Source of the DNA: Dehalococcoidia bacterium
GTDB lineage: Bacteria; Chloroflexota; Dehalococcoidia; GIF9; UBA5629
Length of the DNA: 64,000 nt
Reading direction: 5' to 3'
Assembly: GCA_050011565.1 (NCBI GenBank)
Contig: JBEKIW010000002.1
Location: forward strand, 32,001 to 96,000
Below the pieces are notes generated by a model that saw nothing but the letters and a program-made list of their open reading frames with translations, ran no database searches and had not been told where the DNA came from. Of this stretch, positions 8,995 to 23,679 are shown one piece after another. Position numbers and translations under genes: made by a program. Within the stretch, counting starts at the first letter, position 1. Every line of letters starts with the position of its first letter.

Positions 8995-9911
8995 GCGCTC
9001 CTGCCCACCGCCAGCATCCTATCCACGGCGGCTTTTGCCTTAAGGCGAATCTTCTCCGGTACTTTTACTTCCGGCGCCATCTCTTCCAGTGACCACAATA
9101 CTTTCTCCAGGGTTATCAGCTTCATATTGGGACATATCGCCTGCTCCGAAACCGGTATAAACTTTTTCCCCGGATTCTCCTTTTTTAGCCTGTAAATTAT
9201 GCCCATCTCCGTTCCCACAATCATCTCCTGAACGTCTTCCCTTCTGGCAAACTTTATCATCCCGCTGGTGCTCAACACCTCGTCGGCTAGGGCTATCACA
9301 TCCGGCCTGCATTCCGGGTGAACTACAACCTTAGCCTCGGGATACTCATGCCTTAGTTTAACGATATATTCAGGCATTATCCGGGCATGGGTGGGACAGA
9401 AACCAGGCCAGAGAATCATTTTTTTAGCTGTTTTTGTGGAGATGTAGTGCCCCAAGTACTGGTCAGGGACGAAAATTATTTCTTTTGTGTCCAGGCTTTC
9501 CACAACGCCAACCGCATTAGCCGAAGTACAACAAATGTATGATTCAGCCTTAACCGCAGCCGAGGAATTAATATAGCAGACCACCGTAGCCTTAGGATGC
9601 TCCTTTTTCCTGGCACGTAGCTGTGGGGCGGTTATCATATTTGCCATGGGACAGCCGGCATGTTCGTCCGGCAGCAAGACTGTTTTGTCCGGGCAGAGAA
9701 TTGAGGCTGTTTCTGCCATGAAATGAACGCCGCAGAAGACTATAACGCTGGCATCAGTCTTAGCCGCATTCTGGCTGAGGTCGAGAGAATCGCCGACGAA
9801 ATCAGCTATGTCTTGAATCTCACCCAATTGATAGTTATGGGCAAGTATGACGGCATTTCGCTTTTTCTTGAATTTCAGAATTTTCTCGGTTAGCTCAGTC
9901 TGTCTATCCAT
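8991..9911 (-). CDS. nadA: Quinolinate synthase
   Basis: ILAHNYQ, GDSLDL, FCGVHFMAETA, AGCPMA, YINSSA, HPEC, CPNMK. Confidence 0.97.
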   Translation of the reverse strand: MDRQTELTEKILKFKKKRNAVILAHNYQLGEIQDIADFVGDSLDLSQNAAKTDASVIVFCGVHFMAETASILCPDKTVLLPDEHAGCPMANMITAPQLRARKKEHPKATVVCYINSSAAVKAESYICCTSANAVGVVESLDTKEIIFVPDQYLGHYISTKTAKKMILWPGFCPTHARIMPEYIVKLRHEYPEAKVVVHPECRPDVIALADEVLSTSGMIKFARREDVQEMIVGTEMGIIYRLKKENPGKKFIPVSEQAICPNMKLITLEKVLWSLEEMAPEVKVPEKIRLKAKAAVDRMLAVGRSA

Positions 9912-10695
9912 GGCTAACTACCCTCCAATCATTAGCGTAAACATTCATCCTCTTGCCTCTGGCGAAACCGATGAGCGTGATGCCCAGGTCACCGGCTAAC
10001 TTCACGCCCATATCAGTAGGCGCTGATTTGGAGATGAGCAGAGGGATATTTCTTTTAACCGCCTTAAGCAATATCTCTGAAGAAACCCTCCCGCTGGTTA
10101 TGATAATGCGGCCATCCGTCGATATATCTTCCAAAATGCATTCGCCAAAAATCTTGTCAATGGCATTATGACGGCCTATGTCCTCGCTGAAAATCAGAAT
10201 GTTTTTGGTATCAGATAATGCGGCGCTGTGAACACCACCCGTTGTCCTGAAAATCTGCGACCGGTGCTGAAACTCCCTTACCAGTTCGAAGACTTCGCCA
10301 GCCGATATGCTGGTTTTAGATTCAACTTTCTTCTGCCCGATGACGTCAGCGGCGCTGTAGAAAGAAGCGCCCCGACCACAGCCCGACGTAATCAGCCGCT
10401 TGAACACCAGCTCGCCAGCCTGTTTAGTCTCCTCCTCGGTCTCTACACGGACAACGCCTCTCTGCTCATCAACCGTTATCTTTTTGATTTCATCCTTACT
10501 TTTGAGCAGCCCTTCGGAGGACAGAAAACCGATGGCCAGATAGTCCAGGTGCGCGGGAGTACAAAGCAAAGTCACCAGCTCTTGATTGTTCAAAATGATG
10601 GTCAGAGGAAATTCCCTGACAACTATGTCATCGGAGCGGCTTTTCGCTTCCCCGGTGAGTCGCAATATGGGAACGCGCTCTACCTCGCCCGCCAT
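9904..10695 (-). CDS. fdhD: Formate dehydrogenase accessory sulfurtransferase FdhD
   Basis: LAIGFLSSEG, TSGCG, TGGVHSAA, EDIGRHNAIDK, TSGRVSSE. Confidence 0.93.
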   Translation of the reverse strand: MAGEVERVPILRLTGEAKSRSDDIVVREFPLTIILNNQELVTLLCTPAHLDYLAIGFLSSEGLLKSKDEIKKITVDEQRGVVRVETEEETKQAGELVFKRLITSGCGRGASFYSAADVIGQKKVESKTSISAGEVFELVREFQHRSQIFRTTGGVHSAALSDTKNILIFSEDIGRHNAIDKIFGECILEDISTDGRIIITSGRVSSEILLKAVKRNIPLLISKSAPTDMGVKLAGDLGITLIGFARGKRMNVYANDWRVVSHG

Positions 10696-10696
10696 A

Positions 10697-11131
10697 TTAC
10701 ACTACCTTTATCTGGTCTCCAGTCCTGACGGGTCCGCCTCGAATCACCCTGGCAAACACGCCCTCTTCCGGCATGATGCACTTGCCCACCTGCCGGTAGA
10801 TGGCACACCCGGTATGGCACTCCTTGCCGATTTGAGTGATTTCAAGGACGATTTGTTTACCGACCGATATCCTTGAGCCGACAGGAAGTGATATTAAGTC
10901 TATCTCCTCGGTGGTCAAATTTTCAGCGAAGTCACCCGGGTTGACGTCCAGCCCTAGAGCCCGCATCTTATCGATGCTTTCCACAGCCAGCAAGCTCACC
11001 TGGCGATGCGTGCAACAATCAGCATGAGCGTCGCCGACAAGGCCAAAGTCAGCCTGCAGAAGCCCTGCTCCTACGTCCTTCTTCTTTGTTCCCTTTTTAT
11101 CGCTTTTACAGACAGCGATTATTGTAGCCAT
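10697..11131 (-). CDS. MOSC domain protein (Moco sulfurase C-terminal-like)
   Basis: GLVGDAHA, RQVSLL, PGDFAENLT, LEITQIGKECH..C, CIMP.EGVF. Confidence 0.9.
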   Translation of the reverse strand: MATIIAVCKSDKKGTKKKDVGAGLLQADFGLVGDAHADCCTHRQVSLLAVESIDKMRALGLDVNPGDFAENLTTEEIDLISLPVGSRISVGKQIVLEITQIGKECHTGCAIYRQVGKCIMPEEGVFARVIRGGPVRTGDQIKVV

Positions 11132-11167
11132 GCGTATATGATAATTGCAGGTCTGGCTGAGATTTTT

Positions 11168-11323
11168 TTATAGCTCTTTACCTAGTATCTTTGCCTTGAG
11201 CGTCTCCCACTGTTCTCTGGTCAGGGTACACAGATTACCCTGTTCGCCTATTTCTACTTTGGTGTCGGTTACCTTGACCACCGGGCAGCAAGAGCCCTCT
11301 TTGCATAACGTTACGATTTTCAT
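11168..11323 (-). CDS. 51-aa Cys-containing hypothetical protein (possibly DUF397-like)
   Basis: Not in ORF track. MKIVTLCKEGSCCPVVKVTDTKVEIGEQGNLCTLTREQWETLKAKILGKEL; RBS GGAGG just upstream and a candidate promoter TCGACC-17-TATAAT further upstream. Confidence 0.75.
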   Translation of the reverse strand: MKIVTLCKEGSCCPVVKVTDTKVEIGEQGNLCTLTREQWETLKAKILGKEL

Positions 11324-11446
11324 CTTTCCTCCGTTTATAATTGTATTACTTGTACCCGAAGTGCGGGTTTCAATGTATTAATTATAGCCCTCTTTAACTA
11401 GTTGGTCGAATGAATGATAAATTCGTAGCATTTATCAATCCCCTCC

Positions 11447-11523
11447 TGTCATTGTGAGCGAAGCGTGGCAATCTCACGTTCCCCCACCGAGATTGCTTCG
11501 GGGATTTGCCCCTTGCAATGACA
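11447..11523 (+). repeat. 77-bp palindromic REP-like element (TGTCATTG...GCAATGACA), copy 1
   Basis: Terminal inverted repeats and internal GCAATCTC/GAGATTGC stem; 70/77 identical (hand count) to the reverse complement of 48863-48939. Confidence 0.9.
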
Positions 11524-11534
11524 ATATCCGAACC

Positions 11535-12605
11535 CTAAAACTTCCCGCTGTACTTCTCAAGAGACGCGTAGAAAGCTTTCCAGAACGGATCAACGATAGG
11601 GTGCTCCAGCTTCTCTTCCCGCCCCCCTCGTACCAGCACCACCCCGCGTTTCGGCTCGGTGAACTCACCGACAATAGAAGCTTTAATACCTTTTTGATGC
11701 AGCGCCTTTAATATATCCTTGGCTCTGTGTTCCCGGCAGGATATGATTAGAGTGCCTTCGCTGATGGAAGCATAAGGGTCGATGCCAAAATACTGGCATA
11801 TCTCCAGCACGCAATCCTCAACTACTATACTTTTCATTTCGACCCTGACCCCCAGATTGGCAGCCTGTGCAATTTCATATAGTCCGCCCCATATACCGCA
11901 TTCAGTGGCATCATGCATGGCAGTAACACCATTGTCTCTTATCCCGATACTCACCGCTGTCATGGCATCATCAACGACCGACATCTTGTAGAAAATCTGC
12001 TGAGCTTTCTTATTGAAATCCTTGCCGAACTCACGTTCAATAAGCTCGGGAAACATGGTGGCGAAAATGCCCGTCGCCTCAATAGCGGGGCCCTTGGTAA
12101 TGATTATCTTGTCTCCGGCACGCGCCAGCCTGGGAGTGACATACTCATCCTTACTGCCGATGCCAACCATGGTAGCGCCGCCAACCATGGGATAATGGCA
12201 GTTCTCATACCTGCCCGTATGTCCGGTGATAACTGAAATACCCAGCTTAACGCACTCACGGTGCATAGTTTTCCACATTATTTCCAGTTGCTCACCGGTC
12301 ATCTCCATTGGAAGATTCAAGTCAATGGACAGAAAGCCAGGTTTCAGTCCACTGGTCACAGAATCAGAGGCAATGATGTGAATGGCAAACCAGGCTGCCC
12401 TCTCCCATCCATATTCAGGCACAATAAATACGGGGTCACAGGTAAATGAAACCGCCCTATCTCCGATTTCCACAATGCCAACATCCACTCCGTTCTGAGG
12501 ACCTACCAGAACCTTGTCATTCTTAGCTCCCAGACGAGTAGATATAAGCTCATCAAAGAGCCTGGACGAAATTTTTCCTATCTCCGGCATTGCGCTCACC
12601 GACAC
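11535..12605 (-). CDS. AIR synthase-related protein (PurM/HypE/ThiL/SelD superfamily)
   Basis: GKIS, GP..GVD.G, CDP, SDSVTSG, ITGHT, AMHDATECGIWGGLYEIA, SISEGTL. Confidence 0.85.
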   Translation of the reverse strand: MSVSAMPEIGKISSRLFDELISTRLGAKNDKVLVGPQNGVDVGIVEIGDRAVSFTCDPVFIVPEYGWERAAWFAIHIIASDSVTSGLKPGFLSIDLNLPMEMTGEQLEIMWKTMHRECVKLGISVITGHTGRYENCHYPMVGGATMVGIGSKDEYVTPRLARAGDKIIITKGPAIEATGIFATMFPELIEREFGKDFNKKAQQIFYKMSVVDDAMTAVSIGIRDNGVTAMHDATECGIWGGLYEIAQAANLGVRVEMKSIVVEDCVLEICQYFGIDPYASISEGTLIISCREHRAKDILKALHQKGIKASIVGEFTEPKRGVVLVRGGREEKLEHPIVDPFWKAFYASLEKYSGKF

Positions 12606-12633
12606 ATATTCCTGATTTACAGACTGTCAGTGG

Positions 12634-13800
12634 TTAATTTGCGGTTTTCATAAGTGGTGACATGGCTCTGAGCTTGGAGATTATTCCAGGAAGTACATCC
12701 AGAACCTTACTTATGTCTTCTTCAGTAGTCCATTTCCCTAGGGTGAATCGCAAGGAGCTATGCGCTTGTAAATGCGGCAGCCCCATCGCCACCAGAACGT
12801 GCGATGGCTCGAGGTCCGCTGAGCTGCAGGCTGAACCCGTGGAGGCACAGATTCCATCCAAATCCAAATTTAACAGAATCGATTCCCCTTCCACATAATT
12901 GATGCTAACGTTTACATTGTTGGGCAACCTTTTAACGGGATGGCCATTCAGTTGCGTGTACTCGATGCCCTCCAGTATACCTTCGATTAGCCGGTCACGA
13001 AGAGCAGTTAATTTCTGAGCTTCCTCCAGCATCTCCTGCTGGGCGATTTCAGCAGCTTTGCCAAAGCCGACAATGCCAGGCACGTTCTCAGTGCTGGCTC
13101 GCCTACCTCTCTCCTGATTGCCGCCGTGCATAAAGGAGCTTATTCTGGTGCCCTTTCTGATATAAAGTACACCGACGCCCTTAGGCCCATAAAGCTTATG
13201 CGCCGAAATGGAAAGCAGGTCAACGTTCGACTTATTCACATCTAGCGGGATATGCCCTACCGTCTGCACGGCATCGGTATGGAAATAAATCTCAGCCTCT
13301 CTGGCGATATTTCCGATTTCGGCTATCGGTTCTATGGTGCCGCACTCATTGTTGGCATGCATGATTGAGACAAGGATAGTCCTTTTTGTAATTGCCTTCT
13401 TGACATCAGTGGGGTCAACCAGACCATAGCCGTCCACGGGAAGATAAGTTACCGAAAATCCCTGTTTCTCCAGAAACTTGCAGGTTTCCAGTACGGCATG
13501 ATGTTCGATTGAGCTGGTGATGATATGATTTCCTTTGGCTTGCCGTGACAACGCCACACCCTCAACGGCAAAGTTGTCCGCTTCCGTACCGCTGCCGGTA
13601 AAAACAATCTCCTCGCTTCTGGCACCGATAAGAGCCGCAACTTTACTGCGCGCTCTTTCAATAGCGTCTTTAGCCTCCTGGCCATATGAATGTATGCTGG
13701 ATGGATTACCGAACGAATCGGCAAAATAAGGCAACATCGCCTTCATTACCTCGGGATGTGTCGGCGTGGTGGCCGCATAATCCAGATATATTCTTTTCAC
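12634..13800 (-). CDS. iscS: Cysteine desulfurase (IscS/NifS type)
   Basis: IYLDYAATTP, FGNPSS, SGTEADN, HTDAVQ, SAHKLYGPKG, STGSACSS. Confidence 0.95.
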   Translation of the reverse strand: MKRIYLDYAATTPTHPEVMKAMLPYFADSFGNPSSIHSYGQEAKDAIERARSKVAALIGARSEEIVFTGSGTEADNFAVEGVALSRQAKGNHIITSSIEHHAVLETCKFLEKQGFSVTYLPVDGYGLVDPTDVKKAITKRTILVSIMHANNECGTIEPIAEIGNIAREAEIYFHTDAVQTVGHIPLDVNKSNVDLLSISAHKLYGPKGVGVLYIRKGTRISSFMHGGNQERGRRASTENVPGIVGFGKAAEIAQQEMLEEAQKLTALRDRLIEGILEGIEYTQLNGHPVKRLPNNVNVSINYVEGESILLNLDLDGICASTGSACSSADLEPSHVLVAMGLPHLQAHSSLRFTLGKWTTEEDISKVLDVLPGIISKLRAMSPLMKTAN

Positions 13801-13803
13801 GTG

Positions 13804-14046
13804 TTAGCCTTCAACAATATCTCCGACTATGGGGTCGACTCTAACCCCCTCCTCTTTAACCCAGCTAATTCCGGCGTCGATTTCCTTGTCCTCACCCTCC
13901 AGTTCCAGAACCACCCAACCCCTGTCTTCCGATACATCGGCACGACGTATGTTTGTCACTACTTCAAATTTATGCGATAGCTGATAAATGATAGGCTCCT
14001 TAATCAGCTTACGCGGAAAGGTGAACATTACTTGTCGCTTAGACAT
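13804..14046 (-). CDS. Stand-alone NIL domain protein
   Basis: EPIIYQL..KF.V.TNIRRADV...GWVVLELEG...I.W..E.GV.V, a NIL (ACT-like) pattern; RBS GGAGGG. Confidence 0.85.
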   Translation of the reverse strand: MSKRQVMFTFPRKLIKEPIIYQLSHKFEVVTNIRRADVSEDRGWVVLELEGEDKEIDAGISWVKEEGVRVDPIVGDIVEG

Positions 14047-14100
14047 CGTGCCCTCCTATCTTCATCTCCGATAAAGATTAACCCATCAGGCGCCTTGATT

Positions 14101-15336
14101 TCAAACCTGCACACCAAGCACCTCATTGAACGACTCTAAATTGGGCTGGACATGGAAGGTGTGAACGACATCTGAAACAATCTCTTGCGTCCTTGGTCCG
14201 GCCCCCGTAATAAAAGCGACCGTAAGTTGGTCCTTTTTAATGGCTCCGGCAGCAGCCAGCTTCTTAACCCCGGCAATCACTACTCCACCCGCAGCTTCAG
14301 CAAAAATACCCTCGGTCTGTGCCAGTAATTTCATCCCTTCAATAGCTTCTTCATCAGTGGCACTTGAAGCCCCACCGCCCGATTGCCTGGCGACCATTAA
14401 AGCGTAATAACCATCAGCCGGATTGCCAATGGCTATCGAAGTAACGATAGTACTCGGCGTCACCGGATGGACGTGAAGGCTGCCAGCTTCAAAGGCGTGT
14501 ACGATCGGTGAGCTGCCTGAAGCCTGGGTAAGGTACATATGGGTATTTACCGGCCCTATGAGCTTGAGGGTAGATAATTCTTGCAGTCCTTTCCAAATCC
14601 GGGTAAAAAGTAGACCTGAAGCCGCAGGCGCCACCACACACTCCGGCGGCCGCCAGCCTAATTGCTCAGCCACCTCAAATCCCAGTGTCTTGCTGCCCTC
14701 GGCATAGTATGGCCGGAGGTTTATGTTGATAAAGCCCCAGTTATATCTCTGCGCTAACTCGGCGCAGAGACGGTTGACATCATCGTAGCTTCCATCAACG
14801 GTAACTAGGTTCGGTTTATATATGGCTACACCGACGAGCTTGCCTGGTTCCACATTGGCCGGGACAAATACATAAGCTTTCATGTTCGCCTTGGCTGCAT
14901 GGGCCGCCACACTGGCAGCCAGATTGCCTGTTGAGGCGCAGGCCACAGTATCAAAACCGAACTCACGCGCCTTGGTGACGGCAACGGAAACTGCCCTGTC
15001 CTTAAAAGAATATGTGGGATTGAGGCAGTCATTCTTTATGTAAAGCTCGTTCAACCCCAGCTCACGCCCCAGGTTATCAGCTTTCAGCAAAGGGGTAAAG
15101 CCGGTGCCGATGTCAATCTCCCCCTTGCCTTCAACGGGTAGTAAATCCCGATAGCGCCACATGGTAGCAGGACCTTCGGAGATTTTCTCGTGACTGAGTA
15201 CGCCAGCCAAAGCCTTATAGTCGTAGTTAACCTCGACCGGGCTAAGGCAAAAATCGCAGACCTTCATCGGTTGTAAAGGGTATTCCTGTCCACATTTTCG
15301 ACAGCGCAAACCTGTGGCGTATGACAAATTACACAT
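14101..15336 (-). CDS. thrC: Threonine synthase-like PLP enzyme with N-terminal zinc ribbon
   Basis: CRKC...CDFC ribbon, GFTPL, NPTYSFKDR (PLP Lys), CASTGNLAASVAA, AEGSKT, IAIGNPADG. Confidence 0.85.
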   Translation of the reverse strand: MCNLSYATGLRCRKCGQEYPLQPMKVCDFCLSPVEVNYDYKALAGVLSHEKISEGPATMWRYRDLLPVEGKGEIDIGTGFTPLLKADNLGRELGLNELYIKNDCLNPTYSFKDRAVSVAVTKAREFGFDTVACASTGNLAASVAAHAAKANMKAYVFVPANVEPGKLVGVAIYKPNLVTVDGSYDDVNRLCAELAQRYNWGFININLRPYYAEGSKTLGFEVAEQLGWRPPECVVAPAASGLLFTRIWKGLQELSTLKLIGPVNTHMYLTQASGSSPIVHAFEAGSLHVHPVTPSTIVTSIAIGNPADGYYALMVARQSGGGASSATDEEAIEGMKLLAQTEGIFAEAAGGVVIAGVKKLAAAGAIKKDQLTVAFITGAGPRTQEIVSDVVHTFHVQPNLESFNEVLGVQV

Positions 15337-15381
15337 CTTACTATACGGAGCTATCTGACTATTCGGTTCGTATTAGTACAT

Positions 15382-15410
15382 AAGATACCTGCTATTTACC
15401 AAACGCGCAA
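15382..15410 (-). promoter_or_regulatory. Putative promoter of the thrC-like-NIL-iscS unit
   Basis: Minus strand TTGCGC-17 nt-TATCTT; coordinates approximate. Confidence 0.4.
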
Positions 15411-15453
15411 GCAGCCCGCTACAAATTCTACTGGTAATTGATAAGTACCGGCT

Positions 15454-16017
15454 CTAAGGCCAGCCCGGGTTAATAGTATTTTCGTAGGCGACCACAAGGT
15501 CTGCCTGCTTCATTATTATGTTTCCATTTGTAATTTCGTATGGAACTAATGCTTTGGGATAATCAACGCAAGCCCCCTGAATTCCATTACCTGTATCGGC
15601 TTTGAAAGTAGTGGCACACCGGTCGCATACCAGAGTATTGCCGTCCAGAGAGTAGCCTATGGAGCGACACGGCGGACAAACATCTGCCCGAACATATATC
15701 TTATTATTCAACAAGTATGCCATGAAATTCATTGTGCCAGCTTGTGCATTCACCGCAAACTGTGTATTCCAGTCACTCTCGATATCGCTCACCGGAATCG
15801 AGACTGAGTCACCATTGACCTGAGCCTCAATTATTTTAGCCTTTATTGGTCCTGATGGCTTCTGAGTCGTTGCCTGGATGGTCTGAGGTGCAGATGATGG
15901 AGTTGATGCTGATGGCTGTGTTCCAGTAGTTGACGGCACTGCGGCCGAGTTAGCACAGGCGACGGCTATCAACATCAGCATCAATGTCGAAAGACCTATC
16001 CCGATTTTCTTTAACAT
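15454..16017 (-). CDS. Lipoprotein with DUF2318-like (putative Fe-S) domain
   Basis: Lipobox IAVAC, S/T/P linker, DVCPPC...GY...LVCDRC...GAC..P..VPY motif of DUF2318. Confidence 0.75.
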   Translation of the reverse strand: MLKKIGIGLSTLMLMLIAVACANSAAVPSTTGTQPSASTPSSAPQTIQATTQKPSGPIKAKIIEAQVNGDSVSIPVSDIESDWNTQFAVNAQAGTMNFMAYLLNNKIYVRADVCPPCRSIGYSLDGNTLVCDRCATTFKADTGNGIQGACVDYPKALVPYEITNGNIIMKQADLVVAYENTINPGWP

Positions 16018-16119
16018 AAGTTATTTCCTCCCTGTTATTTATAGTTCAATGTTAGCTTTGTTAGAATGGCGAGCCTTGATTCAGATATGCATTATAAATT
16101 CCCTTTCTGCATTATATTT

Positions 16120-16710
16120 CTATCTACCACAACAGCCACAACCACCAGTTGGGCGAGGCTGGGTAGCGGGACTATTCTGAATTCCCGTTCCGCAGCAACC
16201 TGCGCCTGTCTGTCCGAGTGCGGGAGATGTCGTCTGATTGCCTACCGCGCAGCAACCGGCAACAGTCTGACCGGGTATAGCAGGCAGTTGATTAACGGGC
16301 CCGGCTGCTATCGACTCAGCTACGACAAATTGACTGACAAGCTGACCTAAGGAAACTTTGTATGTTCCCGGTGCATCCTTGAATATCACGAAGGTCAAAG
16401 TCTGGGTTTTTCCGGCAGGCACCAACACTTTGTCCGAAGACTCGGTAACATTGTTTATCTTGAGTTCCGACTTATAAGTATCATCAACACTGGTAACATT
16501 TGTTACCTCAGCAGTTATGACTACTTCGTCTCGGGCAGCAACCTCGGGTGGATTTATTGATAAGCCGGATAATTGAAACGCCGCCGCTTTGCCCGCTTCT
16601 GCCTCTGGCCTCGCGCCAAGTTCATTCAAACTGGTACATGACAGCATCAGTCCGGCAATGGCAAAAGTCGCTATAGGGAAAAGCACAATCTGTTTGGCTT
16701 TATTTGTCAT
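16120..16710 (-). CDS. Lipoprotein with CARDB/Ig-like domain and Cys-Cys repeat tail
   Basis: Lipobox LMLSC; LSINP.EV..VVITAEVTN...PGTYKV beta-sandwich; tail GQTVAGCC...GQTGAGCC...GGCGCCGR. Confidence 0.7.
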   Translation of the reverse strand: MTNKAKQIVLFPIATFAIAGLMLSCTSLNELGARPEAEAGKAAAFQLSGLSINPPEVAARDEVVITAEVTNVTSVDDTYKSELKINNVTESSDKVLVPAGKTQTLTFVIFKDAPGTYKVSLGQLVSQFVVAESIAAGPVNQLPAIPGQTVAGCCAVGNQTTSPALGQTGAGCCGTGIQNSPATQPRPTGGCGCCGR

Positions 16711-17399
16711 CTCTTTCTTGGCCTCCTTACTTTCTGGTTGATTTTCTTAACGATCTTCCCGTCTTGCAGAAATACCGTGGTATTGGCAAAATTGGCTATT
16801 TCAGGGTCGTGAGTAACCATAATGATGCCGTGCCCTTCTTTATGCAGTTGAGTAAACAATTTCAAAATTTCGCCACCTGTCTTCCGGTCCATATTGCCCG
16901 TTGGTTCGTCAGCCAGTATGAGTGACGGCATACTGACCAAGGCTCTGGCGATAGCTACTCTCTGTTGTTCACCGCCGCTCAATTGGCTGGGTTTATGTCC
17001 TGTCCTTTTCCCCAAACCAACCTTCTCCAATATTTCCAGAGCCCTGTCTTCCTCTTTGCCGGCTCCGCAAAACACCAGCGGCAAAAGCACATTTTCAAGC
17101 GCCGTAAGGGACGTGAGCAGATGGTACTGTTGAAAAACATAGGCAATTTTCCCCCGTCTAATATCGACTAATGCATTTTCATCTAAATTATCGATGCGCT
17201 TTTCGTCCAAAAGAACCTCACCACTCGTAGGACTGTCTAGGCCGCCTATAATATTCAAAAAGGTGCTTTTACCGCTGCCGGAAGGTCCCATAATGGCTAC
17301 AAAATTACCCTGTTCCACACTGAATGAAACTTTATCCAGGGCAACTACGCGAGCGGCTCCCTCGCCGTAAATCTTTGATATTTCTCTAAGTTCTAACAT
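16707..17399 (-). CDS. ABC transporter ATP-binding protein (LolD/MacB family)
   Basis: GPSGSGKST, LSGGEQQRVAIARAL, LADEPTGN, VTHD. Confidence 0.95.
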   Translation of the reverse strand: MLELREISKIYGEGAARVVALDKVSFSVEQGNFVAIMGPSGSGKSTFLNIIGGLDSPTSGEVLLDEKRIDNLDENALVDIRRGKIAYVFQQYHLLTSLTALENVLLPLVFCGAGKEEDRALEILEKVGLGKRTGHKPSQLSGGEQQRVAIARALVSMPSLILADEPTGNMDRKTGGEILKLFTQLHKEGHGIIMVTHDPEIANFANTTVFLQDGKIVKKINQKVRRPRKR

Positions 17400-17409
17400 A
17401 TCACTTACC

Positions 17410-18600
17410 TCACAAAGACCTGAAAGAATCTGCGACCTTAATCTGGGTGGCGCGAAATGCCGGATATACGGTGGCTATTACAGCTACAGCAATAGCCAGG
17501 ACCAATGCCAGGGCAAAATACTGGGGAACCAAAGCAATGGTCGTACCTTCAAAAACTAGAGGCCCTGCTATGTATGCCAACAAGGTTCCCACAATGTATC
17601 CTAAAATGCCCCCGATTATTCCAATGATGATAGCCTCGTAAATAAAGGCTTTCACTATCTGGCTTCGCGAAGCTCCTACAGCTCGCATTATCCCGATATC
17701 TTTGATTCTTTCATTGACCGAGGTCATCATGGTATTGACCACTCCAAACAGGCCAACAGCAAGTGTGATTCCGGCCAAAGTCAGCATGAACTTGCTCATC
17801 TTTTCCATCATCCCCATTTCAGTCGCCGCTATCTGTTTTACAGCAACTGCACGAACTCCTGGAATATCTTTATTTATGCCGTCGGCTATTGTTTCTACAG
17901 GGCAGGCGTTGCAAAGAGCTCGAATGTCTACCGATGAAACCAGACCCTCCCTACCGGAAGCCTTTTGTAGAGTATCTATCGGAACAAACACCTGATAATC
18001 ATCATTTGAGCCCGTCTCCTCGAGGATACCGGCGACCGTTACATTAGTTCCATCGAGCGGGATAACGTCTCCTATGTTAAGCTTCAAAATCTCAGCAGCA
18101 ATGGCACCCACCAGCGCCTGGTCTTTTTGTTCCAGATATTTCCCTTCGTGAACTTTCCACCACGTCTTGATTTTGATCTCCTCCTGCGGGTCTATTCCGA
18201 CTACCATCACCGATGTATCTCCTATCTTGGTATTGATGTACAGGTTTGGAGCAATTGTTGCAATATTTCCCTCGTCTTCTATCTTCATCGCCTTTCTTAT
18301 TTCACCATCAGCTATCTGTCTAATCAAGGGTAATTTTTCTTCAGAAATGTAGTTATCTCCAACGGCCAGCATACCAAGTCTCACATCGCCTAGCTTCATA
18401 TCCAAATTGTTTATTGCCGGTATGACTGCCAGATTAGGCCCATATTTCTCCAGCTGATTATATATTCTGGCTTGCCCGGCACTGGCAACTGTTAGTATAC
18501 CGACAACTGTCGCCGTTCCGATAATCACACCAATGGTGGCATACAATACCCGCCTTTTCCTTCGAATCACATCCTTCACAACCACTTGATATAGTTTCAT
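17410..18600 (-). CDS. ABC transporter permease (MacB/FtsX family) with an extracytoplasmic CxxC
   Basis: N-terminal TM, large external domain, SVNERIKDIGIMRAVGA, C-terminal TMs; RALCNACP motif. Confidence 0.92.
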   Translation of the reverse strand: MKLYQVVVKDVIRRKRRVLYATIGVIIGTATVVGILTVASAGQARIYNQLEKYGPNLAVIPAINNLDMKLGDVRLGMLAVGDNYISEEKLPLIRQIADGEIRKAMKIEDEGNIATIAPNLYINTKIGDTSVMVVGIDPQEEIKIKTWWKVHEGKYLEQKDQALVGAIAAEILKLNIGDVIPLDGTNVTVAGILEETGSNDDYQVFVPIDTLQKASGREGLVSSVDIRALCNACPVETIADGINKDIPGVRAVAVKQIAATEMGMMEKMSKFMLTLAGITLAVGLFGVVNTMMTSVNERIKDIGIMRAVGASRSQIVKAFIYEAIIIGIIGGILGYIVGTLLAYIAGPLVFEGTTIALVPQYFALALVLAIAVAVIATVYPAFRATQIKVADSFRSL

Positions 18601-18638
18601 CGTCTCTCCTTCCGGTTCCGTTTTGCCCTAATTTTTGA

Positions 18639-18681
18639 ATATTAACAGCCAACTATGAAGATATTATGAATTTATGATGAA
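18639..18681 (-). promoter_or_regulatory. Three TTCAT(A/C) direct repeats at 11-bp period plus extended -10 (OmpR/PhoB-type promoter)
   Basis: Minus strand TTCATC-ATAAA-TTCATA-ATATC-TTCATA, then 9 nt to TAATAT preceded by TG-n. Confidence 0.6.
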
Positions 18682-18698
18682 AATCCGGTGAACCTTTC

Positions 18699-19853
18699 TC
18701 ACTTAGGTCTTAATTTGTGGTTAAGCGCCTGTTCTAAATCTTCAACCAAATCATCAATGTTTTCCAAGCCGACTGATAACCGTACCAGGTCATCGCTGAT
18801 ACCTATTTTTTTTCTGTAATCTGCGGGCATCGAGGCATGGCTCATTGTTCCCGGGTGCTCCGCCAGAGAAGCGACACCGCCAAGTGATTCCGCTATCTCA
18901 AAAACTTCTAATTTTCTGAGAAAGTTATTGGCTGCTTCCTGACCGCCTTTTAATTCAAAAGAGACCACTCCGCCGAACCCCTTCATCTGTCTCTTGGCTA
19001 TTTCATGGCCAGGATGAGTTTTAATGCCGGGATAAAACACTTTGCTGACCGCTTTGTTTTTCTGAAGATAACTTGCTATAGCTGTAGCATTTTTCTCGTG
19101 TTTTTCCATCCGCAGCGGCAATGTTTGAATTCCCCGGAGCACCAGCCAGCAGTCAAAAGGCGAGGCACAGGTTCCCATAGCATTGAGTAAAAATTGAACT
19201 CTCCGGGTCAACTCATCAGTAGTAGTGATGACAGCGCCGCCGACCACATCGCAATGCCCGTTAAGATACTTGGTTGTGGAATGGACCACCAGGTCGACCC
19301 CGTATTCAATGGGTCGGAAAAAATACGGAGTGGCAAATGTATTATCGATAACGGTTAAAATGTTACGTTTCTTAGCAATGCCTACCACCATCTCAACATC
19401 GGTTATATTAAGTAACGGATTCGATGGCGTCTCTATCCATATTATCCTGGTATTTGGTTTTATGGCTCGTTCAATGGCCTGTCTATTATTCATTCTCAGG
19501 AAGGTAACCTCTAGACCCAGCTCAGACATTACATCTTGAAATAGCCTGTAAGTGCCTCCATAGACATCGTCGGCTGATATTACATGGTCGCCTGCCTTCA
19601 AAAGGTGCGCCACCGTCGTCTCGGCCGCCATGCCGGTGGCAAAAGCAAATCCCGCTTTCCCACCTTCGAGTTGGGCAAGGGTGTCCTCCAAAACTTTTCT
19701 CGTCGGATTGGCTGTTCGAGAATAATCATAGCCCCTCGTTTTACCCACATCTTCAAAGGCAAAGGTCGATGTTTGATAAATAGGCACCGAGACAGCACCG
19801 CATGTCTTATCCGGCCTTTCTCCGGCATGAATGGCCAACGTTTCAAATCTCAT
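18699..19853 (-). CDS. metB: Cystathionine gamma-synthase/lyase family PLP enzyme
   Basis: PIYQTSTF, YDYSRTANPTR, DDVYGGT, ETPSNP, DNTFATP, HSTTKYLNGH, AESLGG. Exact specificity (MetB/MccB/MetC) not resolvable by eye. Confidence 0.8.
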   Translation of the reverse strand: MRFETLAIHAGERPDKTCGAVSVPIYQTSTFAFEDVGKTRGYDYSRTANPTRKVLEDTLAQLEGGKAGFAFATGMAAETTVAHLLKAGDHVISADDVYGGTYRLFQDVMSELGLEVTFLRMNNRQAIERAIKPNTRIIWIETPSNPLLNITDVEMVVGIAKKRNILTVIDNTFATPYFFRPIEYGVDLVVHSTTKYLNGHCDVVGGAVITTTDELTRRVQFLLNAMGTCASPFDCWLVLRGIQTLPLRMEKHEKNATAIASYLQKNKAVSKVFYPGIKTHPGHEIAKRQMKGFGGVVSFELKGGQEAANNFLRKLEVFEIAESLGGVASLAEHPGTMSHASMPADYRKKIGISDDLVRLSVGLENIDDLVEDLEQALNHKLRPK

Positions 19854-19935
19854 ATTCCACCTCCGTCACCGAAATTACTCATAATATTATCTTGATCTTT
19901 TTTAACTCGTCTTTAGTAACTGCTATGTCATGGGC

Positions 19936-20865
19936 TCAAATACCCTGAAAAAGCCAGGTGGATATATAACGCTCACCCGTGTCAGGTAAAATAACCACAA
20001 CGAGCTTACCCTTATTCTCCGGCCTTTTGGCAACCTCCAGAGCCGCCCAGGTTGCTGCGCCGGAGGAGATGCCCGCCAGTATACCCTCTTCTTTGGCTAA
20101 CCTTCTGGCTGTCGCACCGGCATCATCATTGGTTACTTTAATGATTTCGTCGACCAATTCCAGTTTCAATACTTCCGGAACAAAACCGGCGCCGATGCCC
20201 TGTATTTTATGAGGTCCGGGTTTGCCACCGGAAAGGACCGGCGAATCGGTAGGCTCGACAGCTACAACCTTAAATTCAGGTTTCCTCTTCTTTATTACTT
20301 CACCCACACCGGTGATAGTGCCACCCGTACCAACACCGGCAACCAGAATGTCTATCTTGCCATCCGTATCTTTCCAAATCTCCTCAGCCGTGGTCTCACG
20401 ATGGATTTTGGGATTGGCCGGATTTTTAAATTGCTGCGGCATAAAGTAATTTCTGTTTTCAGCTGCTAGCTGTTCTGCTTTCCGTATTGCTCCAGGCATG
20501 CCTTCTACCCCGGGCGTCAGCACCAGTTCGGCACCAAATATAGAGAGAATATGCCTCCGCTCTATCGACATCGTTTCCGGCATAGTCAGTATCAACCGGT
20601 AGCCACGCGAGGCACAGACAAAGGCAAGAGCAATACCGGTGTTTCCGCTGGTAGGCTCGATAATTACCGTATCCTTTTTTATCAAACCATGCTCTTCAGC
20701 AGCCCTAATCATTGACACAGCAATCCTGTCCTTAACGCTGCTGCAAGGATTAAAGGACTCCAGCTTGGCTACAACTTCGGCACTGGCACCTCGAGTCAGC
20801 CGATTTAATCTAACGAGAGGGGTATTGCCTATAAGCCCCGTAATGTCTTTTGCTATCTTTGCCAT
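19936..20865 (-). CDS. cysK: Cysteine synthase A
   Basis: [59 protein letters not shown]. Confidence 0.97.
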
Positions 20866-20887
20866 TAATTAATCTCCCGACTTTCTT

Positions 20888-21334
20888 TCAAATGTCATAC
20901 ATCAACATATCTACGACTTTTTTCTTCTTTTGCATCTCTACCAGATCCTGTAAGGTTTTAGATTCCAGAACTCCATCCATTGCCTTCTTTAGTTCAATCC
21001 AGACGTCGCGCGTGGCACAAAGTTCAGAACGTGAGCAAACTTTAGGATCATTAATACAGTCGACCAGTGCAATTGAGCCTTCAAGCAGTCCCAGTACTTC
21101 GCTGAGCTTCACCTGCTGAGGTGGTCTGGCCAGCTGAACTCCACCATGTGCGCCCCGGGTGCTTCTTATCATCCCCACCGATATCAATGGAGCAATTATA
21201 TGCTCTAGATAGAGCAGCGAAATTTGCTGTCTCCGGGCAATGTCCTTTAATGGAATTGGCTCTTTCCCATCATGCAGCGCTAAATCCAACAGCACCCTCG
21301 TTCCGTACCGACCTCTGGTAGATAGCTTCATCAT
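20888..21334 (-). CDS. Rrf2 family transcriptional regulator with three Cys (IscR-like)
   Basis: MKLSTRGRYG, RS.RGAHGG..LAR, LEG, C-x6-C-x5-C cluster ligands. Confidence 0.93.
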   Translation of the reverse strand: MMKLSTRGRYGTRVLLDLALHDGKEPIPLKDIARRQQISLLYLEHIIAPLISVGMIRSTRGAHGGVQLARPPQQVKLSEVLGLLEGSIALVDCINDPKVCSRSELCATRDVWIELKKAMDGVLESKTLQDLVEMQKKKKVVDMLMYDI

Positions 21335-21344
21335 CCCACCTTGT

Positions 21345-21369
21345 TATGTTGAGTATTTTAGTCAACATA
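21345..21369. promoter_or_regulatory. Rrf2/IscR-type palindromic operator
   Basis: TATGTTGA-GTATTTTAG-TCAACATA, perfect 8-bp arms, directly downstream of the -10 box. Confidence 0.75.
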
Positions 21370-21397
21370 GTATAGAATACAAGTAAAAAAATGTCAA
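21369..21397 (-). promoter_or_regulatory. Sigma70 promoter of the Rrf2-cysK-metB operon
   Basis: Minus strand TTGACA-17 nt-TATACT. Confidence 0.8.
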
Positions 21398-21522
21398 GTT
21401 TCTGTGTGTGGTGCTAAGATTTTTAGCTCGCCCGGACATCTCCTACAACGGTCATAACACCTTTTCCACGTATTTGCATCCTCTGCCCTCTTGCTTTATC
21501 ATACTGACATAGCCGAATCGAA

Positions 21523-23679
21523 ATGGATAATAGCTCTCTCTTACGAAAAGCAAAGGAATATTTGCCTCCGGAGAAGGTGGCTTTAGTTAAAGCCGCTTAC
21601 GAATTCGCCTTGAACGCCCATAAGGGGCAGGTACGGAAATCCGGCGACCCCTATCTAGACCACCCGTTACAAACAGCTACAATGTTAGCGGAACTTCAGC
21701 TTGATGCCACTACCTTAGCCGCAGCCTTACTACACGATGTGCCGGAAGACTGCGGAGTGCCCATGGCAGAAATCGAGGCTAAATTCGGGCCTGAGGTAAG
21801 CAAGCTTGTCGATGGCGTAACCAAGCTGGGTAAATTATCCTTACACCGCGGTGAAGCCAAAAAACGAGAATCTCAGGCCCAGAACCTGCGCAAGATGCTT
21901 ATAGCCATGGCAGAGGACTTGAGGGTGGTGTTCATAAAACTAGCCGACAGGCTGCACAATATGCATACTTTAGCCGCCCTGTCACCGGAGAAACGGCGCA
22001 GCATTGCTCAAGAGACACTGGAGATATATGCACCTCTTGCCCACCGCCTGGGTATCTGGCAAATAAAGTGGCAACTGGAAGATTTGGCTTTCCGTTATCT
22101 GGAACCGCGCCAATATCATAGAGTGGCACGCTTGATAGCCACTCGTCGGACACAACGAGAGGTCTTTATAAATGAGATTGCCGAGACAGTAAAGCAAGAA
22201 CTGGATAAGGCTGACATAAAAGCAGAAATCATAGGCAGGCCGAAGCACCTCTACAGTATCTACAATAAACTTAACCGATATGCAGCTCAAGGCAGGGATT
22301 TCAACGACATTCATGACCTCTTTGCTTTCAGGATACTAGTTGATACAATCCCGGATTGTTATAAAGCGCTAGGCGTCATCCAAAACTTGTGGCATCCTTT
22401 TCCAGAAGAGTTCAACGACTTCATCGCTAATCCTAAAGACAACGGATATCAGTCATTGCACACTACGGTGCTATGTCAGGGCACAACTCCGCTAGAAATA
22501 CAAATTCGCACCCATGCCATGCACCGAAGCGCTGACTTCGGCGTGGCGGCACACTGGCGCTATAAGGAAGGCGCCAGCCAGGACACGCAGTTTGAAGACA
22601 AGATAGCCTGGTTGCGCCAGTTAAATGAGTGGCAGAGCGAGCTTGGCAGTGAGGAATTCCTCGAATCCTTAAAAACTGAGGTCTTCATTGACCAGGTCAT
22701 TGTTTATACCCCCAAAGGCGAAATAAAAGCTCTACCTAAAGGCGCCACCCCACTGGATTTCGCCTATCGCATCCATACCGAGTTGGGACACCGCTGCATA
22801 GGCGCCAAGGTGAACGGCAGGCTGGTGCCTTTGAACTACGAGCTGAAAAATAGCGAGATTATAGACATTATGACCGCCAAGGCTGGGAAAGCACCCAGCC
22901 TTGACTGGCTTAACCCCGATTTAGGATTTATCAAGACTTCTCACGCCCGAGAAAAAATCCGACAATGGTTTAAAAAGCAGGAAAGAACACAGAATATAGA
23001 ACGCGGCAAGCAGATTCTAGAAAGAGAACTCAAGCGGCTAGATATAACCATAACCAATATAGAAGAAACAGCACGCATATTCAATTGCGAAAGTGCCGAC
23101 GATTTTCTGGCAGCTATTGGCTATGGTGGTATAACTCCACACCAATTGGCGCTCAAGCTCGCTATTGAACCGGAAGAAATCCCTGCTATAACCAGAACCG
23201 CACGCACTGAGAAAACGACTACTGCCGGAATTCAGGTCCTGGGCGTGGGCGACTTACTCACTCAATTAGCTCCCTGTTGCAATCCTTTGCCTGGAGACCA
23301 CATTATCGGTTATATTACTCGGAGCCACGGGATTACGGTGCACCGCAAGGACTGCATCAATGTCATCAATGTAGAGGATAAAAAGCGACTCATCGAGGTG
23401 AGCTGGGGCGAGATACAAGATGTATACCCCGTCGATATTCAAATCGATGCCTGGGACAGAGTAGGATTGCTCCGGGATGTCACGACTGTTATTGCCGAGG
23501 TTAAAGTAAATATATCGAGTATGAGCACAACATATCACAACGAAATTACCTCTACATTTGCTACTCTTGAAATCGCAAACATGGCTCAATTAACACAACT
23601 ACTTTCCAAAATACAGGGTGTGCGTGGTATTATAAGCGCCACCAGAATAAGCCACGCCAAAGCCAGTCTTAGTTCTTAG
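21523..23679 (+). CDS. relA: Bifunctional (p)ppGpp synthetase/hydrolase RelA/SpoT
   Basis: H.GQ.RKSG.PY, ALLHD, IKLADRLHNM, GRPKHLYSI, NGYQSLHT, EIQIRT, TGS and ACT domains. Confidence 0.97.
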   Translation: MDNSSLLRKAKEYLPPEKVALVKAAYEFALNAHKGQVRKSGDPYLDHPLQTATMLAELQLDATTLAAALLHDVPEDCGVPMAEIEAKFGPEVSKLVDGVTKLGKLSLHRGEAKKRESQAQNLRKMLIAMAEDLRVVFIKLADRLHNMHTLAALSPEKRRSIAQETLEIYAPLAHRLGIWQIKWQLEDLAFRYLEPRQYHRVARLIATRRTQREVFINEIAETVKQELDKADIKAEIIGRPKHLYSIYNKLNRYAAQGRDFNDIHDLFAFRILVDTIPDCYKALGVIQNLWHPFPEEFNDFIANPKDNGYQSLHTTVLCQGTTPLEIQIRTHAMHRSADFGVAAHWRYKEGASQDTQFEDKIAWLRQLNEWQSELGSEEFLESLKTEVFIDQVIVYTPKGEIKALPKGATPLDFAYRIHTELGHRCIGAKVNGRLVPLNYELKNSEIIDIMTAKAGKAPSLDWLNPDLGFIKTSHAREKIRQWFKKQERTQNIERGKQILERELKRLDITITNIEETARIFNCESADDFLAAIGYGGITPHQLALKLAIEPEEIPAITRTARTEKTTTAGIQVLGVGDLLTQLAPCCNPLPGDHIIGYITRSHGITVHRKDCINVINVEDKKRLIEVSWGEIQDVYPVDIQIDAWDRVGLLRDVTTVIAEVKVNISSMSTTYHNEITSTFATLEIANMAQLTQLLSKIQGVRGIISATRISHAKASLSS

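Follow-up and report, generated by a model that had tools for sequence, protein, structure and literature searches.

A cysteine-rich MacB-type ABC module with a DUF2318 lipoprotein, encoded without FTR1 or P19 among cysteine and iron-sulfur supply genes of a Dehalococcoidia bacterium

The stretch analysed here, hereafter the window, comprises 64,000 nucleotides (nt) of contig JBEKIW010000002.1 of a Dehalococcoidia bacterium (assembly GCA_050011565.1), and window coordinates are those of the whole stretch. Its minus strand carries a four-gene module encoding a MacB/FtsX-type ATP-binding cassette (ABC) permease with a CNAC motif, an ABC ATPase, a lipoprotein with a tail of vicinal cysteine (CC) pairs and a DUF2318 lipoprotein, an arrangement that the initial annotation had described correctly in every particular. 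The module looks like a variant of a known, functionally unexplained Fet-type system. Passages of PMC10783030 and PMC6083913 describe FetABCDEF as accessory genes of the FetMP (FTR1/P19) cluster in Campylobacter jejuni and 33 other species, with FetA joining DUF2318 and YHS domains to an eight-helix membrane protein, FetBCD forming an ABC transporter, and FetE and FetF being thioredoxins. Those passages leave the Fet proteins without an assigned biochemical role, and deletion of fetA, fetB, fetC or fetD is reported in an excerpt of PMC10783030 to weaken growth of C. jejuni under iron limitation in each case.

A scan of one genome per species recovered 71 loci with relatives of the DUF2318 lipoprotein, mostly from Dehalococcoidia, with four from Methanosarcinaceae. 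Co-occurrence was counted in the 54 loci whose sequence reaches 2.2 kb or more upstream. Permease and ATPase accompany DUF2318 in 50 of them; the four exceptions comprise one masked stretch, one locus that meets a contig start and two that are arranged differently. The initial annotation had treated all four genes as a unit, and this stood for permease, ATPase and DUF2318 but not for the fourth gene: just 21 of the 54 loci encode a CC-tail or related immunoglobulin (Ig)-domain lipoprotein, some of them two or three times, which makes it an optional member. A profile search of 1.84 billion representatives returned only 291 clusters at E up to 0.001, among them a second group of short, membrane-anchored DUF2318 proteins. 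A metagenome scan for this second lineage, made with a 7-sequence alignment, yielded 80 loci with the gene order DUF2318, permease, ATPase, and the nearest permeases in a phylum-wide search (47–52% identical) belonged to further classes within the same phylum. Among plasmids, pPRO1 of Pelobacter propionicus encodes the closest match to the window permease (E 2e-47), in a row consisting of a protein with an HMA domain, a 154-amino acid (aa) DUF2318 protein, the permease, an ATPase and an M23 peptidase (L080:6030-9417); tblastn of the window DUF2318 protein against plasmids gave no match.

The permease consists of an FtsX C-terminal domain and a MacB periplasmic core domain, both above the Pfam cut-offs, has its partner ATPase beside it, and matches by profile the solved chains of MacB, LolE/LolC, LolF, YtrF and FtsX. 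CNAC (residues 230–233) holds its only two cysteines and sits in the MacB periplasmic domain between the first and second transmembrane helices; aligned with MacB (5LIL), it falls where a strand passes into a helix in the second half of the Porter subdomain, and 5LIL has no cysteine there. The CxxC is invariant in 50 of 50 aligned full-length permeases from Dehalococcoidia and Methanosarcinaceae, the window included. It recurs as an invariant CxxCP in 45 of 45 second-lineage permeases, which are 32–34% identical to the window permease, and also in the permease of pPRO1. Conservation of this motif, whose absence would by the initial annotation have refuted its proposal, therefore holds in both sets. 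By alignment the CxxC is absent from the four other MacB-type permeases of the same genome, from the solved relatives that were aligned (MacB 5LIL), and from both FetB and FetC of the two Fet clusters used for comparison (one Pasteurella multocida record and one Escherichia coli plasmid), in which FetB has a 25-residue insertion and a single cysteine at this position and FetC has none. Present with short DUF2318 proteins and absent from FetB, FetC and the paralogues, the motif is a marker of permeases whose partner is a short DUF2318 protein. The permease presumably works as a homodimer. A complex prediction with two permease copies and the DUF2318 domain, run without controls, scored 0.00 and carries no weight in either direction. 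The translated ATPase shows Walker A, signature and Walker B motifs, and its best NCBIfam matches are the N-terminal part of MacB, LolD and DarD, all below their equivalog cut-offs.

The motif of the DUF2318 lipoprotein, CPPC-x13-CDRC-x15-C, matches the CxxC-x13-CxxC-x14/15-C published in an excerpted part of PMC6083913. Its five cysteines are invariant in 26 of 26 sequences, as is Cys21, which follows a hydrophobic stretch and is a candidate lipobox cysteine, and an alignment shows the same five to be shared by the window, Methanosarcinaceae, Pelobacter and Pasteurella FetA sequences. An AlphaFold2 model exceeds a predicted local distance difference test (pLDDT) score of 90 over residues 55–187. 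Searched with Foldseek, this model retrieved Rieske ferredoxins first (best 4nbc_F, E 1e-4, TM-score 0.73 on the target), and in a wide VIA-align search of 48,161 chains, independent of Foldseek, the top 45 rows were all Rieske domains, the best with a Z of 11.0 over 103 of 106 residues at a root-mean-square deviation of 2.5. A sequence search of the PDB with the DUF2318 profile gave chance-level rows only (an eS27 zinc ribbon at E 0.25 and NmerA at E 0.36). The fold is thus predicted to be of Rieske type, with four cysteines in place of the Cys2His2 ligands: the modelled domain spans the whole of a Rieske ferredoxin and has two ligand loops of comparable spacing, but where Rieske [2Fe-2S] proteins carry CxH ... 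CxxH it carries CxxC ... CxxC and adds a fifth conserved cysteine. It also differs from them in being a Sec-type lipoprotein without a twin-arginine translocation (Tat) motif, and its cysteine site is a candidate cluster site. None of the 26 N-termini contains a twin-arginine, and any cofactor would therefore be acquired outside the cell, after Sec export.

The third partner contains eight cysteines, including pairs at GCCAVG, GCCGTG and the terminal GCGCCGR. Its AlphaFold2 model predicts an eight-strand Ig-like domain at residues 45–131 (pLDDT about 96) followed by a disordered tail (residues 140–196, pLDDT below 50). Relatives of the Ig domain match CARDB, which is also the best Atlas cluster for the window protein (score 0.89). 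In 15 of 15 aligned sequences the first CC pair of the tail is invariant, as is Cys25, a candidate lipobox cysteine after a hydrophobic stretch, and the number of CC pairs ranges from one to six. A role of the CC tail as a sorting signal or peptide precursor was considered and dropped, there being no supporting feature. In eight related Dehalococcoidia loci (L014:7643-8575 and seven similar) the same Ig domain is fused to a thioredoxin fold of the AhpC/TSA-Redoxin type, seven of these passing the Pfam cut-off; the fusions have no canonical CxxC and instead a single conserved cysteine with a CGCC about 32 residues later. This CGCC echoes the GCGCCGR end of the window tail. Elsewhere the position is taken by such a fusion, by a SurA-like protein with a CC motif or by an HMA protein. 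Three accessories were seen in genes before DUF2318 in the second lineage (L150:3555-4487, L119:1134-1778, L095:764-1081), namely a SurA-like protein with an N-terminal zinc ribbon and the CC motif SCCRSGCGG, a multi-zinc-ribbon membrane protein with a cysteine-rich outer part, and a 106-aa cysteine-rich protein without a family match. What these variants share is a motor of MacB type and, on the outside, a five-cysteine protein of predicted Rieske fold, together with one or more interchangeable cysteine-rich or metal-binding accessories.

The initial annotation had noted that FTR1 and P19 are missing from the window, and this absence extends to the whole 2.0-Mb genome (99.2% complete), in which neither FTR1 (PF03239) nor P19 (PF10634) has a match; a FeoB-like gene is present elsewhere in it. 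Among 301 genomes sampled from the class, 24 have a PF10080 match above the cut-off, and the reading frames concerned split into a short form of 160–225 aa and a long form of 400–470 aa. Of the short-form genomes other than that of the window, 12 of 14 (completeness 88–99%) have no FTR1 match, while FTR1 was found in all nine long-form genomes, mostly in the same reading frame. Two such proteins of about 425 aa (L084:5224-6489 and L085:6948-8228, from genomes G028 and G018) join an FTR1 part (Pfam positions 1–218 of 284) to a C-terminal DUF2318 domain, and in G028, the one genome examined in detail, the gene order is FeoB, FTR1::DUF2318 fusion, two FtsX permeases, ATPase and a DtxR/FeoA regulator. 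The fusion ties the DUF2318 domain to iron permeation.

Compared with Fet, the window module shares the five-cysteine DUF2318 motif (as seen in P. multocida FetA), an adjacent MacB/FtsX-type permease and ABC ATPase, and the outward orientation of all cysteine-bearing parts, and the FetE/FetF thioredoxins are paralleled by the thioredoxin-fold fusions of the eight related loci. It differs in several respects. Fet has linked FTR1 and P19, and it has two permease genes, FetB and FetC (P. multocida, E. coli), where the window and related loci have one, with an invariant CxxCP. FetA is an eight-helix membrane protein with YHS (the latter seen in P. multocida and E. coli), whereas the window DUF2318 protein is a lipoprotein of 187 aa without a YHS match; the third partner is the Ig-domain CC-tail lipoprotein rather than a thioredoxin; and control is predicted to be by Rrf2 instead of Fur. 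With a Pelobacter DUF2318 query, FetA-like matches were found in 834 plasmid records, 796 of them from E. coli and most typed as conjugative, which indicates that the Fet cluster is widely plasmid-borne.

The module is embedded in a head-to-tail series of 13 minus-strand genes running from 21334 to 10697 (Table 1). The initial annotation had placed it among cysteine and Fe-S supply genes, and Pfam and NCBIfam bear out each of the neighbours concerned: CysK, an enzyme of the cystathionine gamma-lyase/synthase family, NifS (TIGR03402, 601.7 bits, above the cut-off), a NIL protein and an Rrf2-family regulator. Downstream of the module the order is ThrC-like enzyme, NIL protein, NifS, AIR-synthase/HypE-like protein, 51-aa CC protein and MOSC protein. 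The ThrC-like and NIL pair, which is found again in 17 to 21 related loci, may correspond to the MetM/MetO homocysteine route, MetO being, on our assumption, a NIL protein. A table entry in PMC13759103 gives this route as leading from O-phosphohomoserine to homocysteine. The 51-aa open reading frame (11168-11323; MKIVTLCKEGSCCP...), just upstream of the MOSC gene, contains one CC pair and has no family match; homologues occur in L008, L010, L053 and L054, in three of them near a MOSC gene. In L010 (9210-13876) the pair of NifS and AIR-synthase-like genes is tandemly duplicated, with identical phmmer scores for both copies.

Table 1. Genes, motifs and candidate transcription signals of the window cluster, listed from its 5' to its 3' end
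Feature	Position	Strand	Remarks
Best promoter-like site of the region, TTGACA-17-TATACT, 11/12	21369..21397	-	
Candidate palindromic operator of TGTTGAC-N7-GTCAACA type	21347..21367	.	just downstream of the -10 box; position weight matrix score 32.9
Rrf2-family regulator, three Cys (C93, C100, C106)	20888..21334	-	first gene of cluster; Rrf2 130.5 bits
CysK	19936..20865	-	TIGR01139 cysK 486.8 bits, above cut-off; upstream of module
Cys/Met pyridoxal phosphate enzyme, cystathionine gamma-lyase/synthase family	18699..19853	-	Cys_Met_Meta_PP 526.6 bits; upstream of module
MacB/FtsX-type ABC permease, 396 aa, single gene	17410..18600	-	FtsX 75.1 bits, MacB_PCD 69 bits (Pfam)
CNAC codons (Cys230, Cys233), periplasmic Porter subdomain of permease	17902..17913	-	
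ABC ATPase, 230 aa, MacB/LolD/FtsE-like	16707..17399	-	ABC_tran 129.1 bits
Ig-like (CARDB-like) lipoprotein with disordered CC-pair tail, 196 aa	16120..16710	-	no Pfam/NCBIfam match
DUF2318/FtrD-like lipoprotein, 187 aa, five conserved Cys	15454..16017	-	PF10080 54.6 bits against a cut-off of 26.3
CPPC-x13-CDRC-x15-C codons (Cys114, 117, 131, 134, 150) of DUF2318 protein	15568..15678	-	
Six downstream genes, ThrC-like through MOSC	10697..15336	-	3' part of cluster
ThrC-like enzyme, zinc-ribbon N-terminus	14101..15336	-	
Stand-alone NIL protein, 80 aa	13804..14046	-	directly after ThrC-like gene
Terminator-like hairpin after last cluster gene (MOSC)	10601..10620	-	

The three cysteines of the Rrf2 regulator are invariant in 21 of 21 sequences and probably serve as Fe-S ligands. 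Of the NCBIfam models only that of the Rrf2 superfamily passes, CymR scoring 131.9 against a cut-off of 195 and IscR 108.6 against 207.55. A weight matrix built from nine sites picks out a single strong site in the 2.0-Mb genome, the operator at 21347; the runner-up scores 15.0, which is within shuffle expectation. In related loci this palindrome precedes the start of Rrf2 by 31–43 nt, and of the 11 loci kept out of training, 9 gave scores beyond the 99th background percentile. Across the 71 loci 15 sites reach a score of 16 or more, and each lies just upstream of an Rrf2 gene, 14 of them at no more than 45 nt from its start and that of L049 at about 250 nt. Five loci (L052, L055, L061, L065 and L068) have Rrf2 directly before permease, ATPase and two or three DUF2318 genes; operators scoring 17.8 to 28.1 precede this Rrf2 gene in four, and L055, with the same gene order, has no recognisable operator (-7.1). 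A separate Rrf2 site for the module was rejected, as no site of 16 or more precedes the permease, ThrC-like or NifS genes in the 71 loci. A pattern scan found no minus-strand terminator-like site in the intergenic gaps from 21334 to 10697. An Rfam scan of 9000-23000 with E up to 1 returned a chance-level microRNA match only, with no riboswitch in the roughly 100-nt gaps on either side of the module, and a run search found no RNA sequencing runs containing the module. Regulation of the IscR type likewise involves an Rrf2 protein with three conserved cysteines, an autoregulatory palindrome overlapping the promoter and NifS downstream (as here, with NifU in relatives), but the window operon also contains the ABC module and genes for making cysteine and homocysteine. 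The consensus core of the operator, GACT-N5-AGTC, presumably resembles the E. coli IscR type 1 motif; the second half-site in the window reads ACTC, unlike the consensus AGTC.

The association with sulfur and Fe-S metabolism extends beyond the window. Homologues of the window's sulfur or Fe-S neighbours were counted in the 29 bacterial loci that extend 4 kb or more to each side: 21 have one or more and 15 have three or more. Serine acetyltransferase, NifU, NadA, Thi4, a Mrp/NBP35-type Fe-S carrier and HcyBio are also recurrent. In the second lineage the neighbours are HcyBio, NIL-ferredoxin, MnmA, a PP-loop ATPase, a ThiI-like protein, Thi4, CysK, an O-acetylhomoserine sulfhydrylase-like enzyme and a MetX-like hydrolase. 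With these counts, a second lineage and an Rrf2 gene that has the single operator of its genome, the link to cysteine and Fe-S supply is stronger than was visible to the initial annotation.

The initial annotation had proposed a system that captures, exports or installs a thiophilic metal or Fe-S cluster outside the membrane; this receives partial support, the metal role itself remaining putative. MacB-type transporters pass ATP-driven movement to their periplasmic domains and are not known to carry substrates across the membrane. The most economical role for the module would therefore be the ATP-driven transfer of a thiolate-bound metal centre between outward-facing sites, and an iron or Fe-S unit is the best candidate because of the Fet genetics, the FTR1 fusions, the Rieske-type fold, and the Fe-S-type regulator and neighbours. 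We tentatively posit, with a probability of roughly 0.45, that the module is a minimal, lipoprotein-based variant of the FetABCDEF module, independent of FTR1 and P19, which acts as an ATP-powered relay of a thiolate-bound iron or Fe-S centre outside the membrane and serves Fe-S and sulfur metabolism. A homodimeric transporter of the MacB (mechanotransmission) type would carry one CxxC in each periplasmic Porter subdomain, and hydrolysis of ATP in the cytoplasm would move these domains, thereby loading or unloading an iron or iron-sulfur centre on the Sec-exported, all-cysteine DUF2318 lipoprotein, while the Ig-domain lipoprotein with its flexible CC tail might be an optional arm for capture or hand-over. 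We infer that the module proteins bind metal, that this metal is iron and that they contact one another. Co-transcription with NifS and the cysteine and homocysteine synthesis genes from one promoter would place the module under the Rrf2 repressor, and with three cysteines of Fe-S type in this repressor we propose that the module is made during Fe-S cluster shortage and supplies iron, or iron and sulfur, to Fe-S and sulfur metabolism. In common with the type VII transporters (MacB, LolCDE, FtsEX and HrtBA), the window permease has FtsX and MacB_PCD domains and a separate or fused LolD/FtsE-like ATPase and would work on the outer face of the membrane; unlike these, the module has no membrane fusion protein, TolC, LolA or hydrolase partner encoded nearby, and its conserved partner is the predicted Rieske-fold cysteine protein. 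Another point of comparison is NosDFY-NosL, in which an ABC ATPase and permease use cytoplasmic ATP to drive a periplasmic domain that takes copper from a lipoprotein chaperone for nitrous oxide reductase. This working principle, which serves the assembly of a metal-sulfur centre outside the membrane, is the one proposed here, but the NosDFY permease is of the ABC-2 rather than the FtsX/MacB type, the metal is copper, and there is no sequence relation to the module proteins.

Several points weigh against such a relay. As MacB-type transporters are not known to carry substrates across the membrane, the module by itself cannot account for import, and it has no linked importer as a partner. Canonical FetB and FetC lack the CxxC, which implies that the motif is unnecessary for any function shared with Fet. 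That the cluster is one Rrf2-controlled transcript is suggested by pattern scans only, and a weak promoter-like site (9/12) precedes the permease. The sulfur and Fe-S neighbours are missing from 8 of the 29 bacterial long-flank loci, and none of the sulfur genes is present in the three long-flank loci of Methanosarcinaceae. A single class contributes most of the loci, so that conserved synteny is partly inheritance. On pPRO1 the module stands in a copper and heavy-metal resistance island that also encodes a CsoR-type regulator, a heavy-metal P-type ATPase, TolC and a resistance-nodulation-division (RND) adaptor. The Methanosarcinaceae copies adjoin a BlaI-like repressor and an M48 peptidase (L069:3849-4906), one Chloroflexota short DUF2318 gene follows a BlaI/BlaR pair and has no adjacent ABC transporter (L086:4386-5795), the peptidases beside these repressors being of the BlaR-like M48/M56 kind, and a two-component system lies upstream in five or six loci; these contexts fit stress defence as well as supply.

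Other explanations are partly compatible with the metal relay. The outward cysteines might form a thiol-disulfide redox relay, in which the ABC transporter exports reducing power, for example as cysteine or another thiol, and the CxxC, the DUF2318 protein and the CC or thioredoxin-fold proteins pass electrons on. CPPC and CEPC do resemble redox-active motifs, the module is flanked by cysteine-forming enzymes, thioredoxin-fold fusions occur in the eight related loci, and a passage of PMC10783030 proposes a flow of reducing power from FetBCD through FetA to FetE/F. The fusions, however, have a single cysteine and CGCC in place of the canonical CxxC active site, strict anaerobes in reduced habitats would have little need of an extracellular reductant, and the genome encodes an electron conduit of the CcdA/DsbD type elsewhere. 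The MacB architecture, moreover, has no known transmembrane path for a substrate, and the predicted Rieske fold with its knuckle-type CxxC pairs points to a metal site, so we regard a redox relay as unlikely. The CcdA/DsbD-type membrane protein of this genome is unlinked to the module and lies a few kb from two tandem thioredoxin-fold genes (C3:95520-100666); it offers a general path by which reducing equivalents reach the outer face. The metal could also be a toxic one. In a defence against thiophilic metals (Cu, Ag, Hg, Cd), the outward cysteines would sequester the metal, the ABC motor would expel it or hand it on, and co-expression with Fe-S and cysteine genes would reflect metal damage to Fe-S clusters. 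Vicinal CC pairs are classical ligands of soft metals, CutA1 lies near the module in five loci, and to the sensors of BlaI/BlaR-like and two-component type beside other copies is added the gene order HMA protein, DUF2318, CxxC permease and ATPase in the pPRO1 island, with the permease that is the best plasmid match to that of the window. A clear resistance context is nevertheless confined to that one locus, and neither the window cluster nor the families that recur across the 71 genome loci include a metal-sensing regulator of CsoR, MerR or ArsR type. As the only genetic data for the family are iron-limitation phenotypes, and the FTR1 fusions and the FeoB and DtxR neighbours likewise point to iron, we consider metal defence quite improbable.

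The company of sulfur genes allows a further explanation, in which the cysteine-rich lipoproteins would capture sulfur from sulfide, polysulfide or metal sulfide as persulfides outside the cell; freed by the ABC module, this sulfur would then feed CysK, the synthesis of homocysteine and sulfur insertion that does not depend on NifS. Sulfur-source transporters are typical of cysteine regulons, and the enzymes beside the module in both lineages use sulfide or persulfide: CysK, the cystathionine gamma-lyase (CGL)-family enzyme, ThrC-like with NIL, and NifS in the first; HcyBio, NIL-ferredoxin, MnmA and the ThiI-like, Thi4, O-acetylhomoserine (OAH)-sulfhydrylase-like and MetX-like genes in the second. 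Against this, H2S crosses membranes freely, known persulfide carriers rely on a single active-site cysteine instead of a Rieske fold with Cys4 knuckles, the links of the wider family are to iron permeases, and rhodanese, TusA and DsrE domains are absent from the scanned recurring families of the loci, making sulfur scavenging very doubtful. A machine for Fe-S clusters outside the membrane, with the MacB-type motor and its pair of CxxC motifs loading or stripping a [2Fe-2S]-type cluster on the Sec-exported, all-cysteine, Rieske-fold lipoprotein, can be imagined in two versions: the cell would either take up dissolved FeS clusters from the environment as a joint source of iron and sulfur, or assemble an Fe-S protein on its outer face. 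Even taken together, we think these two versions rather unlikely. Assembly on the outer face would, if true, be a first for bacteria, and the same cluster chemistry would explain the role of FetABCDEF in the FTR1/P19 iron uptake of pathogens.

The literature found on DUF2318 (passages of PMC10783030 and PMC6083913) concerns only the C. jejuni fetMP-fetABCDEF cluster. It does not describe the short form, the invariant permease motif or the independence from FTR1 and P19, the supplements of the two Fet papers, with possible cysteine alignments of FetB and FetC, lying outside this coverage; nor does it describe a Rieske-type DUF2318 model, FTR1::DUF2318 fusions or the Rrf2 operator. C. jejuni needs the pair of DUF2318 and MacB-type ABC transporter to grow when iron is limiting, many E. 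coli plasmids carry this pair, and its conservation without FTR1 and P19 argues that it is a functional unit of its own. The short form is the simpler system, with soluble lipoprotein domains and one permease gene, and it offers a new invariant permease motif to mutate and a predicted DUF2318 fold that points to an all-cysteine, Rieske-type metal site. Its repeated placement among sulfide- and Fe-S-dependent enzymes in strict anaerobes suggests that the handling of metal outside the cytoplasm is linked to Fe-S supply in these organisms.

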